From Bacteroidales bacterium (GTDB lineage Bacteria; Bacteroidota; Bacteroidia; Bacteroidales; WCHB1-69), in the NCBI GenBank assembly GCA_045132055.1, contig JBGURP010000007.1, forward strand, positions 138,946-202,945: a stretch of DNA of 64,000 nt, read 5' to 3'. Position numbers and translations under genes: made by a program. Below, piece by piece: positions 2,264 through 60,003 of the stretch (position 1 is its first letter; every line of letters begins with the position of its first letter). Under the pieces are notes generated by a model. That model searched no databases. It saw nothing but the letters and a program-made list of their open reading frames with translations, and was not told where the DNA came from.

Positions 2264-4720
2264 ATGAAACGGCTCCTCCCCTTTTTCCTGCTGATAGCCA
2301 TGGCAAACATACTTTCAGCTCAAAGCCAATATGCCATTACGGGCACTTTGATCGATTCCCTGAACAAAGAGAAAGTGATGTTTGCCACCATCGGGTTGCT
2401 AACCCCGGACTCCACCGCACAAATGGTGGGCAGGTCTCTGTCGGACGCACAAGGCAAGTTCCAGATTTCCAATGTTCCTGCCGGAGAGTATCGTTTCGTG
2501 GCATCCTTGGTGGGCTATGAGATGCTCAACATTCCCTTGACGGTGAGTGGAGAGAGCCGGACTATTGACATGGGAGATGTTTCCATGCACAAGACGAGCA
2601 CCGATTTAGAGGAGGTGAAAATCATTGGCGAAAAACCGGTTTATATGGTGGATGGCGAAAAGACGCTCTACAACGTGGCCGAGGACCCCACCATCCAGTC
2701 GGGCACGGCTGCGGATGCTTTGCAGAACGCGCCCGGCGTAGAGGTGGACGTAGAGGGAAATGTGACGCTGCGCGGCGTTTCCTCCGTGGAGATCTGGATC
2801 AACAACAAGCCCTCCAACATGAATGCCGAGGCGCTCAAGCAGTTCATCCAGCAGATGCCTGCGGGCAGCATTGAGAAAATAGAGGTCATCACCAACCCCT
2901 CCGCACGCTACAGCGCACAGGGCAACGGCGGCATCATCAATATCATCACGACTTCCAAAATCAAGAAGAACAGCTTTCTCAGCTTCGGCTTGCGCGGTTC
3001 CTCCACGCCCGACATCACCCCCTTTATCTCATACGTCTATGCCAACGAGAAGTTCTCCATCAGCACTTACCTCAACTACTCCTACAGCATCAACAAGGAC
3101 ATGAACGAATCCTTCAGCACCATTCTGACTAATGAGGGAGACACCTCCAGCACCACCCATAGCATCTACGAAATCCGACAACCCTCGCACAACATTGGCG
3201 TGTATATAAACGGTTCATATTCGCCGGACACCATGAACAGTCTTTACTTTTGGGCAGGGACTTACCCTCAAATTGGAAGCCATACTCTTTCGGATTCCAC
3301 TTATTACCAAGAGTATATCTTCAACCCTGGCGACCGTTCATATTATCACAATCAGGTTTCCCACTACACAGGTGCTGGCGGTTACGGCGGACTCTGGTAC
3401 GAGCACAAGTTCAACAGCAGGGGGCACAAAATCAGCACCGACGCGAGTTTTTGGACTTGGGCAAGCAAGAGCAGCGGTGACGATGTCCGTGACTATCTCT
3501 TTATGGACCATTTGGACAAGAATAAAAGATATGAACAAAAGTACAGCATGGTGGGGGTTGATGCCTCCATTGACTACACTATTCCTTACCACAAGGACGG
3601 GGAGATTGAATTGGGTGTGTCGGGAAGCTATGATCCTCGTTTGAATTATTACCGGCTTGACACGTTAGTTTTTTCCACGGACGAGTACGTGATGGACCAG
3701 TTGCGTTCCAAGGATGTGCGGGCCCACAATGGCAGCGTTGACGCATACGTGACGTTGCAACATCGTTTTGGCGGTTTCACCCTCAAGGGTGGCCTGCGTA
3801 CGGAGTATGAAATATACAACCTGCTGATGCTCAATTCGCCTGCCGACAATGTGCACAAGGGTTATTGGGGACTTTATCCTTCCCTCCATCTGAGCTATCG
3901 CACCAAAAACATGCACAACTTCAAGCTCAGCTACACGCGCCGTGTGAACAACCCCGATGGTGATAACCTTACCACATACATAGATTACGGAGAGGATGAG
4001 TACAGCACTGGAAATCCTGATTTACGGCAGACCTTCACCAACTCCATAGAGGCTGGATGGACCAAGTACATCAACAAGTTCGGCAATGTCGGCATCAACG
4101 CCTGGTTCAAGAACAGCAAGGACGAGTTCAGTTCGCAATCGGATGTGGCTTACAGTCCTTTCTTCGGACGTTATGTCACCTTCACGATGCCGGTCAATGC
4201 GGGCAAGTCGCTCAACACGGGCGCGGAATTGAACGTGATGTACCGCCTCAAATCCTTCATGAATATCCGCTTCTATGCCAATGTTTATTACATGAAATCT
4301 TCTTTCCAATTCCGTAAAGAGGAAACACCTTACACAGTTGATAATTTGGGTTACAGTTTCCGTCTGAACTTCTGGGCCAAGATGTGGGATGTGCTGGAGG
4401 TGAACGCCTCGGCCAATTACAGTTCCAAGAGTGTATCCATGTTCACGGTCACGCGCCCGCGCTACAGCATTGATGCCGGATTGCGAGCTGAATTCTGGAA
4501 GCGCCGCATCTCCATCCATTTGGATGTACATGACATCTTCAACTGGAACAAGACCACCACCGATATCAACAATCCCTATTACACATCGAACAGTACCAGT
4601 TGGAGCAGTTGGATGGGCCGCAGCATCCGTGCGGGTATCACCTTCAAGTTCGGCAAGATGGAGCTGGAGGGTGCGCAGGCGCAAGCCCAGGGAGGCGGTG
4701 GCCAAGGGATGGGGATGTAA
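2264..4720 (+). CDS. TonB-dependent-receptor-like outer membrane beta-barrel protein with N-terminal carboxypeptidase-regulatory-like domain
   Basis: 818 aa. Signal peptide (LLIAMANILSAQ), CarboxypepD_reg-like start (ITGTLIDS...GKFQISNVPAGEYRFVASLVGY), plug-like region (NAPGVEVD..GNVTLRG) and alternating beta-strand C-terminus (GITFKFG). Confidence 0.8.
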   Translation: MKRLLPFFLLIAMANILSAQSQYAITGTLIDSLNKEKVMFATIGLLTPDSTAQMVGRSLSDAQGKFQISNVPAGEYRFVASLVGYEMLNIPLTVSGESRTIDMGDVSMHKTSTDLEEVKIIGEKPVYMVDGEKTLYNVAEDPTIQSGTAADALQNAPGVEVDVEGNVTLRGVSSVEIWINNKPSNMNAEALKQFIQQMPAGSIEKIEVITNPSARYSAQGNGGIINIITTSKIKKNSFLSFGLRGSSTPDITPFISYVYANEKFSISTYLNYSYSINKDMNESFSTILTNEGDTSSTTHSIYEIRQPSHNIGVYINGSYSPDTMNSLYFWAGTYPQIGSHTLSDSTYYQEYIFNPGDRSYYHNQVSHYTGAGGYGGLWYEHKFNSRGHKISTDASFWTWASKSSGDDVRDYLFMDHLDKNKRYEQKYSMVGVDASIDYTIPYHKDGEIELGVSGSYDPRLNYYRLDTLVFSTDEYVMDQLRSKDVRAHNGSVDAYVTLQHRFGGFTLKGGLRTEYEIYNLLMLNSPADNVHKGYWGLYPSLHLSYRTKNMHNFKLSYTRRVNNPDGDNLTTYIDYGEDEYSTGNPDLRQTFTNSIEAGWTKYINKFGNVGINAWFKNSKDEFSSQSDVAYSPFFGRYVTFTMPVNAGKSLNTGAELNVMYRLKSFMNIRFYANVYYMKSSFQFRKEETPYTVDNLGYSFRLNFWAKMWDVLEVNASANYSSKSVSMFTVTRPRYSIDAGLRAEFWKRRISIHLDVHDIFNWNKTTTDINNPYYTSNSTSWSSWMGRSIRAGITFKFGKMELEGAQAQAQGGGGQGMGM

Positions 4721-27671: not shown

Positions 27672-29375
27672 TTAACCCTTAATGATTCTAGTCTGATAGA
27701 AACTGCGACCCTTATCCAGTATGTGTATCACATAAGCTCCGGCAGGCAAGGAAGTGATATTCAACGTGGAGGTTCCCGCTTCGACGATGGTTTGGTAAAT
27801 CAACCGCCCCTGATCGTCAAACATCAAAAATTCGAATTGCTTAGGCGGATCCACCATAGAGGTGACATACAAATAGCCGTGTGTCGGATTGGGATAGATG
27901 ACAAACGCAGGCGAATTCTGGTCGTCAACACCCGAAAATTTGGAAACCAACTGCACATTTTGGACAACAATCTGTCCATCCGCCACGGACACGGTGATGG
28001 TTTTGGGATAATAATCCTCCGCTGTGTAAGTTACAGAATAGGTGCCTCCTTTAATCGGACGATGGTAGTTGCCCTCCGGGAGCATGGAATAAACCTGCGA
28101 ATGGTCCTTGTCATGATTCTCCACATACACTTCGGCTTCGATAGGCAAACCCGTAACTGAGTCTGTAACGATACCCCGTATGCCATTCAAGGATTCTTCA
28201 ATATAGTCCAACAACGCCTGGCGGGTATAGTTCCAATACTTGTAAAGCTGATTCGAGGAAACCACCTTGTCGGCACTAACCTCAATCGTGACTTCACGGC
28301 ATCCAAGAAAATAATTGTAGCAATCCTGTCGCGAACCTACTGTCGTGTACCAATCGGAGCCACGCACCACACCATCGTCCAAATCTTGCATGTAGTTGTT
28401 GTTCTGCGCATGGCAAGTGTTCGCGAAATTATGCCCCACATACTGCCACCAAAGATCGTCCGCGTGAATCTTATTTGACGATTCCCATGTATCCCAAGGG
28501 TAATTATAGACCTCCGCACCGCCATGGAAATTGGCCGACATCGTGAAATTGTGCGCCATGCCAAAATCCAGCATCGCCCGAACCTCACTGGGATAGTCGC
28601 CATTCTCATTATATGGCACATATACAATAGGATATGAACGGTTTAAATCAATACGCGAATAGTTGCTTCGCGTGCTGTAGGGCGACTCACCCAAAGAATC
28701 ATTGTGATTGCGGTATGTGCCATCTGGATTCTCTATCGGACAAATCCAAAGGTCCACATTGTTGATGATATTCTGGACTTGAGGATCAGAATCGTAATTA
28801 TTCAACAGATATTCAATGAGTCGCAACAACAGATAATACCCCACGGGCTCGTCGCCATGCATGGTGGAAGTATAGAAAAACGCAGGCTTGTTGCCACGCT
28901 CCTGCAGATTGTTGCTGATGTGGGCAGCTAAAATCTTGTGATTGGCAGTCGTATGGTTCAAAATAGGCTCTATTTTGCAAATATTTGGAAACTGGCTCTG
29001 GAAAGTATCCATTGTGGCCACATACGCGCCCCAAGTGGGATAGCGGTTCCATGAATCGGTAAGCTGCTCGTAACTATGCGCCATGCGCACGTTCACCTTC
29101 GAACCCGTTACAATGGTAAACGGGATGCCTTGTGACAAGAAATGGGCATAGTCGTCACGGCCGATGCACAATCTAACCTTGTAACAGTCATACCCTTCTG
29201 CCACAACCTTGTCCACAGAAAACTCGCGACTCACCTCCTTAAGCATCTCGCCCGACAGGCTTGTTTCGATGTACGTCTCCGGCCATTCGCTGTTGAACGG
29301 ACGCAAAGAGTCGATCTGGGCGTATCCGACGGTAAAGATGATGAGAAAAGAGATAAGGGATAGAATTTTATTCAT
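27672..29375 (-). CDS. T9SS-sorted M14 family zinc carboxypeptidase
   Basis: Signal peptide, zinc ligand motifs (MHGDEPVG, NFHGGAEV), a carboxypeptidase-regulatory-like domain and a T9SS type A CTD (IYPNPTHGYLYV...GAYVIHI...RIIKG). Confidence 0.8.
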   Translation of the reverse strand: MNKILSLISFLIIFTVGYAQIDSLRPFNSEWPETYIETSLSGEMLKEVSREFSVDKVVAEGYDCYKVRLCIGRDDYAHFLSQGIPFTIVTGSKVNVRMAHSYEQLTDSWNRYPTWGAYVATMDTFQSQFPNICKIEPILNHTTANHKILAAHISNNLQERGNKPAFFYTSTMHGDEPVGYYLLLRLIEYLLNNYDSDPQVQNIINNVDLWICPIENPDGTYRNHNDSLGESPYSTRSNYSRIDLNRSYPIVYVPYNENGDYPSEVRAMLDFGMAHNFTMSANFHGGAEVYNYPWDTWESSNKIHADDLWWQYVGHNFANTCHAQNNNYMQDLDDGVVRGSDWYTTVGSRQDCYNYFLGCREVTIEVSADKVVSSNQLYKYWNYTRQALLDYIEESLNGIRGIVTDSVTGLPIEAEVYVENHDKDHSQVYSMLPEGNYHRPIKGGTYSVTYTAEDYYPKTITVSVADGQIVVQNVQLVSKFSGVDDQNSPAFVIYPNPTHGYLYVTSMVDPPKQFEFLMFDDQGRLIYQTIVEAGTSTLNITSLPAGAYVIHILDKGRSFYQTRIIKG

Positions 29376-33079: not shown

Positions 33080-33166
33080 GGAGAGGTGGGTGAGTGGCTG
33101 AAACCAACAGTTTGCTAAACTGTCGATGGGGAAACCTATCCGCGAGTTCGAATCTCGCCCTCTCCG
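33080..33166 (+). tRNA. tRNA-Ser (anticodon GCU), type II with a long variable arm
   Basis: Cloverleaf folded by hand: acceptor GGAGAGG/CCTCTCC, anticodon arm ACAGT-TTGCTAA-ACTGT, variable arm GATGGG-GAAA-CCTATC, T arm GCGAG-TTCGAAT-CTCGC, discriminator G. Confidence 0.9.
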
Positions 33167-33361
33167 CAAACAAAAAGGCGATACGAAAAGTGTCGCCTTA
33201 ATTGTTTGCAGGAAGCCGTCGTCCGCTTGCGGACGTAAGGCTGACGGTAAACAATTAAGTGGGCTTGCGCAGCAAGGCCTTTTTGGTTGCAAGGATGCCC
33301 GCGGCAGCGAAGAGATATCCAATCTCGCCCTCTAAACACGACGCAGGCGTCGTGTTTTTTT
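33167..33361 (+). other. structured tRNA trailer, either candidate small RNA(s) or an integration scar
   Basis: Hairpin at 33175-33199. A 61-nt nested hairpin at 33198-33258 has a 10-bp outer stem (TTAATTGTTT/AAACAATTAA) and an inner CGTCCG-CTTG-CGGACG. A terminator-like hairpin plus T5 sits at 33261-33284. A 13-nt copy of the tRNA 3' end sits at 33321-33333. A strong terminator lies at 33336-33361. Confidence 0.4.
33336..33361 (+). terminator. intrinsic terminator
   Basis: ACACGACG-CAGG-CGTCGTGT (8-bp stem) followed by T7. Confidence 0.8.
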
Positions 33362-33362
33362 G

Positions 33363-33370
33363 TATTTTTG
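33363..33370 (+). promoter_or_regulatory. -7 box TATTTTTG driving the riboswitch transcript
   Basis: Exact TAnnTTTG about 10 nt upstream of the first riboswitch helix. Confidence 0.55.
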
Positions 33371-33377
33371 CCCCCGA

Positions 33378-33560
33378 TTTCACGGTGAGCGGTTCACACA
33401 TGAACCGCGAGAGGGAAACAGGTGCGAATCCTGTACAGTACCCGCTGCTGTAACTCTTCATCCGCTTCGGACACCCCAAAACGCCACTGTTGGTACGCCA
33501 ATGGGAAGGCTCGCCCGAAGGAAGACAAGTCAGAAAACCTGCCGGAAAATCAGCATAGTG
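33378..33560 (+). promoter_or_regulatory. cobalamin (B12) riboswitch
   Basis: Conserved core elements read directly: AGAGGGAAACAGGTGCGAATCCTGTACAGTACCCGCTGCTGTAA, GCCACTG...GGGAAGGC, and the B12 box AAGTCAGAAAACCTGCCGG (33527-33545). It sits in the 5' leader of the 33664 CDS. Confidence 0.85.
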
Positions 33561-33663
33561 ACAGCTTCGGGATGTAGGCTAACACGGAACACGGCTTTGC
33601 TAGTCGCCGTATCTTTTCCCAAAGCAATGGCACCACAAATGTTTAACTTAAAACCAAAAAAGT

Positions 33664-35085
33664 ATGAAAAAGTTATTGTGTGTATTGCTTGCATTGACAA
33701 CTTTAAGCCTTTCGGCACAAAACGACCAACTGCCTGACGACGCCACCCTCGCCGCCGACCAAGTCATCTATTGGGTGGGCAACGGCAACAGCCAAGTGGT
33801 GCTGGCCGTCAATTGGGCCACGCCGGACACCTGCCTTGCCTGGGGCGTGCGCTTTGACGGCGACGAAGCCTTGGTGGCAGACCTTTTGCACACCATCGCC
33901 ATCTTCGACGACCGCTTCTCCTATTCGGGCGACGGCTTACTTGACAGCATCAACTTCAACGACGGTCCGCTGCACTTGATGCGTACCGGCAACTGGTGGA
34001 TATACAACATCAACGGATCCGGCGCCGAACTGGGCTACCAGGAGCAGACCGTGCAACACGGCGATTTCATCAAGTTCGGCGATGAAAGCTGCGGCGTATC
34101 CGACGAAAACTACCAATACGCCTGGACCACAACGGTAATGCCCGTGTGGCTGCCCGACCAGACCAGCCTGCTGTTCACCGACTCCGTGGGCACATCCGGC
34201 TGCCAGGCCATCTACTATAACAATCCCGCCATCCTGGGATGGGCCACGGGCTGCACAGTCACGCGCGGATTCCAGAATATCGCCAATCCCACTTCCTACG
34301 CTGATTACGGCACCGACAGCGACGGCATCGGCTCCAGCAGCGAGTCAACCACCGACGGCGTGGTAAGCCTCGGTGACGGCGGCATTGCCGTGCTCACCTT
34401 CGACATGCCTATCACCGATGGAGAAGGCTATGACTTCGCGGTTTTCGAGAACTCCCTGAACCATACTTTCCTGGAGATGGCCTTCGTGGAAGTGAGTTCT
34501 GACGGCGAGCATTACTACCGTTTCCCGTCCGTCTCCAACACGCAAATTGCCACCCAGATCACCAACGGCGGAGCTGTCGATCCGCGTAAAGTACACAACC
34601 TGGCTGGCAAATACATCGTGGGCTGGGGCACGCCATTCGACTTGGCTGAACTGGCTGGCTACAGCGACCTGGACATCGACAACATCACGCACGTGCGCCT
34701 CGTGGATGTGGTAGGTTGCATTGATCCGCAATATGCCACCACCGACAAGAACGGGCACATCATCAACGACCCCTACCCTACCCCCTGGGGCAGCAGCGGT
34801 TTTGACCTGTCAGGCGTGGCTATCATGAACGGCTGGCAGCCCAATGGCATCGAGGAAGAACAACTCTCAAACGCCCTGTTCGCCTACCCCAACCCGTGCA
34901 CAAGCACGTTGTACATCAACAACAACCAGTCCGAATGCGACATTGAAATATACAATGTCTTCGGCCAACTGGTTTGGAATGAGCATTCCTCCGACAGCCG
35001 GATTCAGATCAACATGCAAAACTTCCCGGATGGCATGTATATAGTCAAATCCGGAACTCAATGTGTAAAAATCGTCAAACGATAA
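33664..35085 (+). CDS. T9SS-sorted secreted protein with an N-terminal DUF4430/transcobalamin-beta-like domain (candidate corrinoid-binding protein)
   Basis: 473 aa. Signal peptide MKKLLCVLLALTTLSLSAQ. Residues about 30-145 show the DUF4430-like pattern (VIYWVG..SQVVLAVNW...DSINF...NWWIYNINGSGAELGYQEQTVQHGDFIKF). The central domain is uncharacterised (GYDFAVFENS...FVEVSSDGEHYYRF...SGFDLSGVAI). The C-terminal T9SS type A domain reads AYPNPCTSTLYI...DGMYIVK...VKIVKR. Confidence 0.6.
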   Translation: MKKLLCVLLALTTLSLSAQNDQLPDDATLAADQVIYWVGNGNSQVVLAVNWATPDTCLAWGVRFDGDEALVADLLHTIAIFDDRFSYSGDGLLDSINFNDGPLHLMRTGNWWIYNINGSGAELGYQEQTVQHGDFIKFGDESCGVSDENYQYAWTTTVMPVWLPDQTSLLFTDSVGTSGCQAIYYNNPAILGWATGCTVTRGFQNIANPTSYADYGTDSDGIGSSSESTTDGVVSLGDGGIAVLTFDMPITDGEGYDFAVFENSLNHTFLEMAFVEVSSDGEHYYRFPSVSNTQIATQITNGGAVDPRKVHNLAGKYIVGWGTPFDLAELAGYSDLDIDNITHVRLVDVVGCIDPQYATTDKNGHIINDPYPTPWGSSGFDLSGVAIMNGWQPNGIEEEQLSNALFAYPNPCTSTLYINNNQSECDIEIYNVFGQLVWNEHSSDSRIQINMQNFPDGMYIVKSGTQCVKIVKR

Positions 35086-35120
35086 TCCATTGCTTTTATC
35101 GGCCCATTCTTAAAAATCTG

Positions 35121-35128
35121 TATTTTTG
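35121..35128 (+). promoter_or_regulatory. -7 box TATTTTTG upstream of the small beta-barrel gene
   Basis: Exact TAnnTTTG 18 nt upstream of ATG 35147. Confidence 0.5.
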
Positions 35129-35146: not shown

Positions 35147-35749
35147 ATGACAAGGATTTATATCTTTTTTACCACGACCCTGCTTTTCCTCTGTACATGC
35201 CAGATCCACGCTCAAGAAGAAGGAAAAGTGTATCGGGGATTTGACGGTGGCATGATGGTTCATGCCGGGTATCTCCAAGGTAACATTTCACCCCTGCAGC
35301 ACCAAGCGAAAGGGGCCACCTTCGGACTTGGGGGAGTGGCTCGCGTGCATCTTGGCAACCATTGGATGATTGGTGGCGAAGGGTACGTGTCAACCTTGAA
35401 TCAGCTGAAAAACGGCAGCTACATCAAATACGGCTGGGGCGGTTTTTTGGGCGAATTCTACTGGGCTTTTAAACACGTGATGCCATACATGGGCGTCACG
35501 ATTGGAGGCGGAGCGGGCACCTATCTGCTGATGTTTGAGGGCGACCGCACAAACTGGCTGCCGGAGTCCAATGCCGTGTTCCACAAACAAACATTCATGG
35601 CCATTGACCCGTTCATCGGATGTGACTTCATCGTTTCCAAATCCGTTCACCTGACCTTGAAGGCCGACTGTCTGCACAGTCTTTCACACGGAAAACTCCT
35701 GATGCCCATGGGACCCCGTTTTTATTTCGGATGCATTTTTTACCATTAG
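35147..35749 (+). CDS. small outer-membrane beta-barrel protein (about 200 aa)
   Basis: Signal peptide (LLFLCTCQIHAQ), alternating aromatic/glycine beta-strand pattern and an aromatic C-terminus (FGCIFYH). The start was moved from TTG 35126 to ATG 35147. Confidence 0.55.
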   Translation: MTRIYIFFTTTLLFLCTCQIHAQEEGKVYRGFDGGMMVHAGYLQGNISPLQHQAKGATFGLGGVARVHLGNHWMIGGEGYVSTLNQLKNGSYIKYGWGGFLGEFYWAFKHVMPYMGVTIGGGAGTYLLMFEGDRTNWLPESNAVFHKQTFMAIDPFIGCDFIVSKSVHLTLKADCLHSLSHGKLLMPMGPRFYFGCIFYH

Positions 35750-35752
35750 AAT

Positions 35753-36211
35753 ATGAACGATAAAGAACAGAAATACGACCTGCTGTTTCGTCAAATCCAA
35801 TCTTTGGCCGAAGGCGAGACGGATGACATCGCGCTGATGGCCAATATGGCTGCGGCCATTCATGACACTTTCCATTTCTGGTGGACAGGATTCTATCGTG
35901 TAATAGGTAACGAATTGGTATTGGTATTGGGACCGTTCCAGGGCCCGCTCGCGTGCACGCGCATCGCATACGGGCGCGGCGTGTGCGGCACCGCCTGGCA
36001 GGAGGAGCGCACTTTGGTGGTCCCCGACGTTCATCAATTCAAGGGACACATCGCGTGCAGCAGTGCCTCCAACAGCGAAATCGTGGTGCCCGTGTTCCGC
36101 GACGGCAAAATCATCGCCGTGCTCGACATCGACAGCGAGCACTACAACACCTTCGACGAAACGGATCGTGTTTGGCTAGAACGGATAGTAGCAATCCTCT
36201 CTAATCTCTAA
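35753..36211 (+). CDS. GAF domain protein (free methionine-R-sulfoxide reductase, MsrC/YebR-like)
   Basis: 152 aa with the motifs W.GFYR......LVLGPFQG..AC.RI..G.GVCG and HIAC...S.SEIVVP. Confidence 0.8.
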   Translation: MNDKEQKYDLLFRQIQSLAEGETDDIALMANMAAAIHDTFHFWWTGFYRVIGNELVLVLGPFQGPLACTRIAYGRGVCGTAWQEERTLVVPDVHQFKGHIACSSASNSEIVVPVFRDGKIIAVLDIDSEHYNTFDETDRVWLERIVAILSNL

Positions 36212-38938: not shown

Positions 38939-38959
38939 CTCAATTTCTGTCTGCTTCAG

Positions 38960-39043
38960 TGCCCAGGACAAGAGTCGAACTTGCACGGGAGTACTCCCAC
39001 TACCCCCTCAAAGTAGCGTGTCTACCAATTCCACCACCTGGGC
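38960..39043 (-). tRNA. tRNA-Leu (anticodon GAG), type II
   Basis: Hand-folded: acceptor GCCCAGG/CCTGGGC, anticodon arm CTACT-TTGAGGG-GGTAG, long variable arm, T loop TTCGACT. Confidence 0.9.
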
Positions 39044-59918: not shown

Positions 59919-59921
59919 CAG

Positions 59922-60003
59922 TGCCCGGAACAGGACTTGAACCTGCACGCCTTTCGGCACACGCACCTGAAACGTGCGCGTCTACCACTTCCGCCATCCG
60001 GGC
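59922..60003 (-). tRNA. tRNA-Leu (anticodon CAG), type II
   Basis: Hand-folded: acceptor GCCCGGA/TCCGGGC, anticodon arm CACGT-TTCAGGT-GCGTG, 13-nt variable arm, T arm GCAGG-TTCAAGT-CCTGT. Confidence 0.9.

Follow-up and report, generated by a model that had tools for sequence, protein, structure and literature searches.

The DNA analyzed here is a 64,000-nt window of a Bacteroidales genome (contig JBGURP010000007.1, positions 138,946 to 202,945, forward strand). At 33363-35085 it carries a cobalamin (vitamin B12) riboswitch with its own promoter box, followed directly by a gene for a 473-amino-acid secreted protein. We think it likely that this gene encodes a B12-repressed accessory protein, exported by the type IX secretion system (T9SS), that captures corrinoids and feeds a BtuB-BtuG (BtuBG) transporter encoded elsewhere in the genome. 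We are more confident of the regulation, and of a role in B12 acquisition, than of direct binding. Our reading is based on the riboswitch linkage of the family in 72 of 80 related loci, the btuB/btuG clusters found in 34 of these 72, fusions to and neighbors with the DUF4465 domain, short forms that stand alone behind riboswitches, a family-level match to DUF4430, a fold match to BtuG1 and, within the window, a genuine riboswitch with a promoter box and a second T9SS cargo. The idea of a B12-repressed, exported capture protein had been put forward in a first-pass annotation made from the DNA sequence alone. It fits the comparative data well, with corrinoid binding as its predicted part; the underlying observation was confirmed, and the interpretation given to it was partly supported.

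The riboswitch was recovered at 33366-33560 (+) as a match to the full Rfam model RF00174 (model positions 1-189; 97.9 bits, E = 3.2e-23, gathering score 31.5), with the previously proposed start, 33378, lying 12 nt inside the match. It is the sole riboswitch within the window, has a B12 box (GCCACTG) at 33483-33489, and shows 50 invariant columns when aligned with 25 riboswitches from related loci. The octamer at 33363-33370 (+), TATTTTTG, overlaps the 5′ end of the aptamer match and fits TAnnTTTG, which is the -7 box consensus of Bacteroidota promoters. The earlier proposal that the riboswitch has its own promoter at this position was borne out by comparison: TAnnTTTG precedes the model start by exactly 3 nt in 69 of the 75 related riboswitches that have upstream sequence, versus a background of 1.8% of random 45-nt windows. 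Given this fixed spacing, transcription in these Bacteroidota would be expected to begin at one of the first few bases that the Rfam aptamer model covers. On the 5′ side, tRNA-Ser(GCT) (33080-33167, +) and three terminator-like hairpins (33175-33199, 33261-33280, and 33334-33357) precede the riboswitch promoter, and no convincing open reading frame (ORF) was found between the tRNA and that promoter. The unit is therefore well delimited at this end by the tRNA gene and the hairpin at 33334-33357. Downstream of the aptamer, the leader or expression platform (33561-33663, +) contains a hairpin-like element, AGCTTCGGGATGTAGGCT, at 33563-33580, which is conserved in 14 aligned leaders, as well as a weak terminator-like stem at 33592-33606 with a U-rich run after it. 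A conserved terminator or sequestering helix was sought in this region without success, the leader having no significant fold (z-score 0.76) and the 14 aligned leaders no consensus structure. In Bacteroides thetaiotaomicron, B12-riboswitch promoters are almost completely repressed by B12 and pseudocobalamin (PMC12751083).

Comparative evidence came from the association of riboswitch and gene, which the first-pass annotation had suggested surveying. A scan of one genome per GTDB species yielded 558 relatives of the protein, of which the best-scoring 80, which are not a random sample, were kept as loci L001-L080. Gene maps of the loci were made with a longest-ORF caller and BLAST clustering, and some long ORFs in them may be merged or split genes. 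A covariance model (R1), built from 26 riboswitches of related loci that had been picked by regular expression, was then run on all loci; the window riboswitch scores 141.6 bits with it. A same-strand cobalamin riboswitch was found upstream of the family gene in 72 of the 80 loci, with no opposite-strand ORF between the two. R1 was drawn from the same loci that it scans, and the eight weakest of the 72 hits were independently checked with Rfam, where they scored 75-110 bits. At least 33 loci share with the window the arrangement in which the family gene follows the riboswitch directly. For the other eight of the 80, Rfam detected no riboswitch in the available sequence, which in five cases extends less than 1.5 kb upstream. 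In L026 (9901-12454) and L049, nrdD and nrdG, which encode the anaerobic, B12-independent ribonucleotide reductase and its activase, lie directly after the family gene on the same strand, behind the riboswitch. Two cobalamin riboswitches each were seen in L028, L042, and L046; in L042 and L046 each of them precedes a family paralogue, and in L028 the second reaches the end of the available sequence.

In 34 of the 72 riboswitch-linked loci, btuG and/or btuB is present in the same-strand cluster (btuG in 32). The proteins that we refer to as BtuG-type are DUF5074 beta-propellers that match PDB chain 8P97_B at E = 8e-29, and the propeller family PF16819 has been reported to adjoin B12 transporters (PMC13398666). 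Those that we refer to as BtuB-type are TonB-dependent receptors whose best NCBIfam match is the vitamin B12 receptor model, at a score well under its cut-off. Typical gene orders, where X is the family gene, are riboswitch-btuG-X and riboswitch-btuB-(DUF4465 with T9SS domain)-X-btuG. Since btuG and/or btuB share the cluster in these 34 loci, the family gene appears to be an accessory of the BtuB/BtuG system rather than a replacement for it. The first-pass annotation had described the riboswitch as controlling this protein instead of a BtuB transporter, which is accurate for the window locus but does not extend to these 34 loci. A separate observation concerns L067 (3915-5198) and L068, in which a protein of 428-437 amino acids (cluster c111), with a T9SS domain and no other Pfam match, is encoded before the family gene and btuB-btuG, and may be a further unannotated accessory protein. 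The L068 operon, comprising the c111 gene, the family gene, btuB, and btuG, has no riboswitch.

The ORF at 33664-35085 (+), directly 3′ of the riboswitch leader, encodes the 473-amino-acid protein, and an alignment of its homologues delimits an N-terminal domain of about 140 residues, a central domain of about 225 residues, and a T9SS sorting domain. The N-terminus, MKKLLCVLLALTTLSLSA/QN, reads by eye as a Sec signal peptide (residues 1-18, 33664-33717, +) with a predicted cut before Gln19, a residue that is at least 90% conserved in the alignment; there is no lipobox. The N-terminal domain spans residues ~26-162 (33739-34149, +) and the central domain residues ~170-395 (34171-34848, +). A T9SS type A C-terminal sorting domain, residues ~404-473 (34873-35082, +), is supported by Por_Secre_tail PF18962 (residues 408-467, E = 7.4e-13, 49 bits versus a cut-off of 27) and TIGR04183 (E = 3.9e-12, 46 bits versus a cut-off of 23), and matches the solved T9SS C-terminal domains 8GLK and 8GLJ as well. 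The Sec signal and the type A sorting domain named in the first-pass annotation were thus both found again. T9SS type A cargo crosses the outer membrane and is then anchored on the surface or released. A second cargo of this system is encoded in the window, an M14 zinc carboxypeptidase with CarboxypepD_reg and T9SS sorting domains (27672-29375, -), which is the only hint in the window that the genome encodes T9SS machinery. Searches of all PDB sequences with the protein and with family profiles, one profile to E ≤ 10, returned only T9SS C-terminal domains, and no transcobalamin, BtuH, BtuJ, or BtuG. Pfam gave no DUF4465 match at E ≤ 1 and no DUF5074 match in the protein, whose AlphaFold2 (AF2) model (mean predicted local distance difference test score, pLDDT, 81.8) has no propeller. 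NCBIfam had no match for the N-terminal or the central domain.

The N-terminal domain had been assigned to DUF4430 and thereby related to the corrinoid-binding beta domain of transcobalamin and intrinsic factor. The Pfam model for DUF4430, PF14478, does match the protein at exactly the motif on which that assignment was based, W-x-Y-N-x-N-G...G-D-x-I-K-F, which fits the C-terminal half of the model. For the window copy, however, the score stays below the cut-off of 23.8 bits, at 16.6 bits for the whole protein (residues 109-138, E = 0.011) and 18.2 bits for the N-terminal domain alone. Homologues give better matches: 27 of 35 full-length homologues match at E ≤ 0.01 (best E = 1.2e-9), as do 16 of 30 isolated N-terminal domains, one of them above the cut-off at 26.3 bits. 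We therefore regard the DUF4430 assignment as sound at the family level and sub-threshold for the window copy, for which it is credible only because of the homologue matches. In the AF2 model the domain (pLDDT mostly 80-94) has strands at 43-51 and 56-64, a helix at 71-81, strands at 85-90 and 92-100, and further strands. This predicted order of two strands, a helix, a hairpin, and more strands is consistent with the transcobalamin-like beta-grasp clade, in which a hairpin follows the helix. Transcobalamin was absent among the matches that Foldseek listed for the full-length model. DUF4430 is the C-terminal domain of transcobalamins (PMC4350170), and bacterial members of the transcobalamin-like SLBB beta-grasp clade were predicted by Burroughs et al. 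(2007; PMC1796856) to bind B12. Unlike transcobalamin, the window protein has no alpha domain and would provide at most half of the transcobalamin binding sandwich.

Hidden Markov models (HMMs) that we built for the N-terminal domain find it one to five times before the central domain in related loci, and many relatives are about 620 amino acids long owing to its duplication. Four riboswitch-controlled relatives are giants of 2,100-2,400 amino acids (L020:3025-9735, L036:2730-9881, L042:3537-9905, and L079:3267-9929), with two to five, mostly four, DUF4430-like repeats in addition to the central and T9SS domains. Fn3 domains are also present in L020 and L036, the two giants that were scanned against Pfam. 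Such proteins could be multi-site binders.

The central domain is the most conserved part of the family. As the first-pass annotation had stated, it is uncharacterized: neither Pfam nor NCBIfam has a match to it at E ≤ 1. With the sorting domain left out of the query, over 7,000 relatives were recovered, all of them labeled just "T9SS type A sorting domain-containing protein" or "hypothetical." An exhaustive profile search with the central domain through 1.84 billion cluster representatives gave, at 50% identity, no fewer than 2,715 clusters with E ≤ 1e-3, 1,126 of them reaching E ≤ 1e-30; the best 150 were inspected, and all were strong family members. Among the best 80 loci, the full-length forms come from metagenome-assembled genomes of rumen and gut Bacteroidales. 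Short forms of about 325 amino acids, consisting of the central domain and a T9SS domain, are found in Flavobacteriaceae (Algibacter, Winogradskyella, Mariniflexile), Sphingobacteriaceae, Cytophagales, and Saprospiraceae. A search started from the Algibacter short form returned a very large set of Flavobacteriaceae proteins, again named after the sorting domain only. Between rumen Bacteroidales and marine Flavobacteriaceae, 43 columns of the central domain are invariant, and the invariant polar residues include D238, D257, E262, N263, E271, S278, S279, K316, D348, D361, N368, and D381. So many invariant polar residues could form a catalytic or metal site, and riboswitch control would fit any function in B12 acquisition, including that of an extracellular enzyme by which corrinoids would be freed from dietary or host carrier proteins, say, or altered at their side chains. 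We consider this very unlikely, as the domain has no hydrolase or transferase match in Pfam or NCBIfam, its fold matches are non-catalytic jelly-roll binding modules, and the conserved acidic cluster of BtuH is a structural Ca/Na site (PMC13616437).

It is the central domain, not DUF4430, that tracks the riboswitch across Bacteroidota, since short forms are controlled by riboswitches on their own. In L065, L074, and L077 the gene for the central domain and T9SS domain is the sole gene after the riboswitch, lying between a Lon protease gene and unrelated genes on the opposite strand. Elsewhere the domain occurs together with DUF4465, which defines the BtuJ family and for which B12 binding has been demonstrated experimentally in ten proteins, including BtuJ1 and BtuJ2 (PMC12751083, PMC13398666). 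Stand-alone proteins with DUF4465 and a T9SS domain are encoded in six loci (L063:6952-7944, L056:7242-8240, L069:451-1434, L071:2399-3394, L073:6952-7944, and L076:6937-7932), and the L063 copy matches solved DUF4465 structures at E = 1e-16. In five of these loci the stand-alone gene has btuB on one side and the central-domain gene on the other; in the short contig of L069 it is directly behind the riboswitch, and the available sequence contains no btuB. The two domains are also found in one polypeptide. Among the best 150 sequences of the profile search, P0254, P0285, P0291, P0340, P0354, and P0378 have the order central domain-DUF4465-T9SS domain (with two DUF4465 copies in P0354), and the reverse order of DUF4465 and central domain occurs in L070 (143-1807) and L080 (7269-8912). 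P0315 comprises a central domain with a PEP-CTERM anchor followed by a DUF4465 segment with the same kind of anchor, and was read as a pair of neighboring genes that the gene caller had joined. In P0383, a central domain with a PEP-CTERM-type anchor is followed by a segment with a prepilin-type methylation motif and DUF1559. The anchors of these two sequences suggest that the family has relatives outside Bacteroidota that use another surface-sorting signal.

The recurrent joining of the central domain to differing modules, either DUF4430 in one to five copies or DUF4465, would also be seen if only these modules bound corrinoids and the central domain docked them at the cell surface or onto BtuG/BtuB. 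A conserved protein partner would fit the 43 columns that are invariant across classes, and B12 loci do encode non-binding proteins, namely BtuL and BtuK2 (PMC12751083). Such a docking role nevertheless seems rather unlikely to us. The central domain with a T9SS domain and nothing else is the commonest form in Flavobacteriia, the lone riboswitch-controlled genes of L065, L074, and L077 have no binder or transporter nearby, and the best fold match of the domain is to a chain of a B12-binding lipoprotein. Corrinoid capture by the protein, to which the central domain may itself contribute, remains the reading that we prefer.

This fold match was obtained with the central domain modeled alone, since Foldseek with the full-length model had been uninformative, giving diffuse multi-domain beta-sandwich matches with template modeling (TM) scores below 0.25. 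When re-predicted in isolation, the domain gave a jelly-roll-like AF2 model with a pLDDT of 85 and a predicted TM score of 0.87. Its top PDB match was 8blw_B (E = 3.5e-4, query-normalized TM score 0.45, 15% identity), which is BtuG1 (BT1490), a B12-binding lipoprotein composed of a BtuG propeller and a BtuH-type domain. The next matches, with TM scores of 0.27-0.37, were jelly rolls of the CBM32, F5/8 type C, and APC10 types. This likeness to the BtuG1 chain is suggestive but weak. The first-pass annotation had proposed that the protein has a different fold from BtuG and BtuH, and with the BtuG1 chain of 8BLW as top match this is not established for the central domain. Because ranks 3-50 of the Foldseek matches are mostly carbohydrate-binding modules and discoidin-like domains, and because no transporter gene lies near the window gene, the protein could also be imagined as a glycan-binding or adhesin-type T9SS surface protein that is controlled by B12 only incidentally, as some B12-independent isozymes are. 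We give this explanation hardly any weight, however, as it leaves unaccounted for the riboswitch linkage in 72 of 80 loci, the operons with btuB or btuG, the DUF4465 fusions, and the transcobalamin-like domain.

Several results weigh against corrinoid capture as the function of the protein. The match to 8blw_B has, besides its low TM score and identity, a root-mean-square deviation of 10 Å, and it is known at the level of the whole chain, which includes both the propeller and the BtuH-type domain. Apart from this chain, the central domain matches generic jelly rolls of the CBM32 and F5/8 type C kinds, whose usual ligands are sugars. BtuH2 (7BIZ) was not among the top 50 Foldseek matches of the isolated central domain, although it appeared at rank 37 for the full-length model, and the family HMM profiles found neither 7BIZ, 8BLW, nor transcobalamin in PDB sequences. 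The DUF4430 match of the window copy, at 16.6-18.2 bits, is under the Pfam cut-off. Three loci (L040, L058, and L068) have no riboswitch despite at least 5.9 kb of upstream sequence, and there is no btuB or btuG within 30 kb on either side of the window gene. Finally, the examples of BtuL and BtuK2 show that a gene in a B12 locus need not encode a B12 binder (PMC12751083).

With these points taken into account, we propose the following sequence of events for the corrinoid-capture protein. Transcription would start from the TAnnTTTG box that overlaps the beginning of the aptamer match. When cobamides are plentiful in the cell, the aptamer would bind them and expression would be shut off; when they are scarce, the 473-amino-acid protein would be made, exported by Sec, and cut before Gln19. 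The T9SS would then carry it over the outer membrane by means of the type A C-terminal domain, leaving it anchored at the surface or released. Outside the cell, the beta-grasp domain, the central jelly-roll domain, or both would capture corrinoids and hand them to BtuG-BtuB, a complex whose genes would lie elsewhere in the genome; the role of the protein would resemble the one that the BtuJ and BtuH lipoproteins have in B. thetaiotaomicron. The receiving transporter is assumed, as no btuB or btuG lies within 30 kb of the gene.

The surroundings of the gene are in line with the earlier statement that no B12-uptake genes are present nearby: tblastn with 60 BtuB, BtuG, and BtuG-like proteins from the related loci found no match in the window. 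A TonB-dependent receptor of the OMP_b-brl_3/CarboxypepD_reg type at 2264-4720 (+) has no riboswitch and no tblastn match to the BtuB-like cluster, and is probably unrelated to B12. We also asked whether the 200-amino-acid ORF that follows the family gene (35147-35749, with an ATG at 35147) could belong to the same operon, and decided against this. A separate TATTTTTG box precedes the ORF at 35117-35124, the ORF has no family match, and its pairing with the family gene recurs only in L081, a relative with 92% identity, and in no locus of the GTDB set of 80; for these reasons we take the riboswitch unit to consist of one gene. This ORF has a signal-like N-terminus. L081 retains it together with the GAF-domain gene that comes next (35753-36211), and has a different upstream region (DnaG-like primase, Amidase_2). 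Two further tRNA genes were noted in the window, tRNA-Leu(GAG) at 38959-39043 (-), which was found by ARAGORN only and is not reported at the Rfam gathering threshold, and tRNA-Leu(CAG) at 59921-60003 (-).

Extracellular accessory proteins of Bacteroidota B12 uptake are a known kind of protein, of which the window family would be a further variant. BtuG forms a lid on BtuB, and we know of no such role for the window family. Like BtuG (DUF5074 propeller, PF16819), the family is predicted to be extracellular and belongs to the same regulon, often to the same operon (32 of 72 loci), whereas its beta-grasp and jelly-roll domains have folds unrelated to the propeller. In B. thetaiotaomicron, the accessory B12 proteins BtuG, BtuH, BtuJ, BtuK, and BtuL are all lipoproteins, some of them enriched in vesicles (PMC13616437, PMC12751083). 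BtuG, BtuH, BtuJ, and BtuK carry an SPII signal and a lipoprotein export signal in that organism, in contrast to the Sec signal and T9SS domain of the window protein. BtuJ1 and BtuJ2 (DUF4465, PF14717) serve BtuBG loci as accessory proteins at or outside the cell surface and, like the window protein, are under riboswitch control; BtuJ has been proposed to act as the first capture step or as a reservoir (PMC12751083). DUF4465 proteins are, moreover, neighbors of the central domain or are fused to it. The window protein differs from them in having no DUF4465 match, in not being a lipoprotein as BtuJ1 and BtuJ2 are, and in that B12 binding, which is proven for BtuJ, is in its case predicted. It was also considered whether the central domain could be a divergent BtuJ, and this was rejected, as an hhalign comparison with DUF4465 gave a probability of 0.24%. 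BtuH1/BtuH2 and BtuG1/BtuGH (BT1490; 7BIZ, 8BLW) resemble the window protein as B12-locus accessories in which a compact globular domain is combined with spacer or partner domains. The family has no sequence-profile similarity to BtuH, however, and the BtuH proteins, which are lipoproteins, have PKD or propeller domains as partners, while the window protein has a Sec signal, DUF4430, and a T9SS domain and no PKD.

The first-pass annotation had considered T9SS-dependent corrinoid capture to be undescribed. For this family that stands, as searches of the literature on T9SS together with B12, cobalamin, or riboswitch returned no description of the family or of its central domain, and none was found of a bacterial DUF4430 protein that combines a T9SS signal with B12-riboswitch control. 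A coupling of B12 binders to T9SS is not wholly new, however: among 824 DUF4465 B12 binders, Juodeikis et al. (2025) reported 229 with a T9SS sorting domain and 88 with PEP-CTERM (PMC12751083). A study of DUF4465 gene neighborhoods relied on Pfam-annotated neighbors (PMC13398666) and would therefore have missed the central domain; the lack of a Pfam model has kept the domain out of view in such analyses.

In the gut, the rumen, and the sea, competition for B12 and its analogues is a force that shapes the community. The present picture of B12 uptake in Bacteroidota, comprising BtuB-BtuG with BtuH, BtuJ, and BtuK lipoproteins and vesicles, derives from B. thetaiotaomicron, which to our knowledge has no T9SS. 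Our results suggest that T9SS-bearing Bacteroidota (including rumen Bacteroidales, Flavobacteriia, Sphingobacteriia, and Cytophagia) use different, unannotated exported proteins for B12 uptake, one component of which is related to the B12-contacting domain of animal transcobalamin. We tentatively entertain a further reading, taken as a whole, in which the central domain is an unrecognized class of extracellular corrinoid-binding domain, standing beside BtuG, BtuH, BtuJ, and BtuK and present in thousands of species, and in which arrays of one to five beta-grasp domains make secreted, multi-site B12 "sponges" that leave the cell through the T9SS and not by lipoprotein export or vesicles. With a model of the central domain in Pfam or NCBIfam, thousands of proteins now labeled by their sorting domain only could be re-annotated at once, and predictions of B12 regulons would improve. 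If the central domain does bind corrinoids, it would represent a new scaffold for B12 capture and would allow the idea that secreted binders behave as siderophores do to be tested directly.

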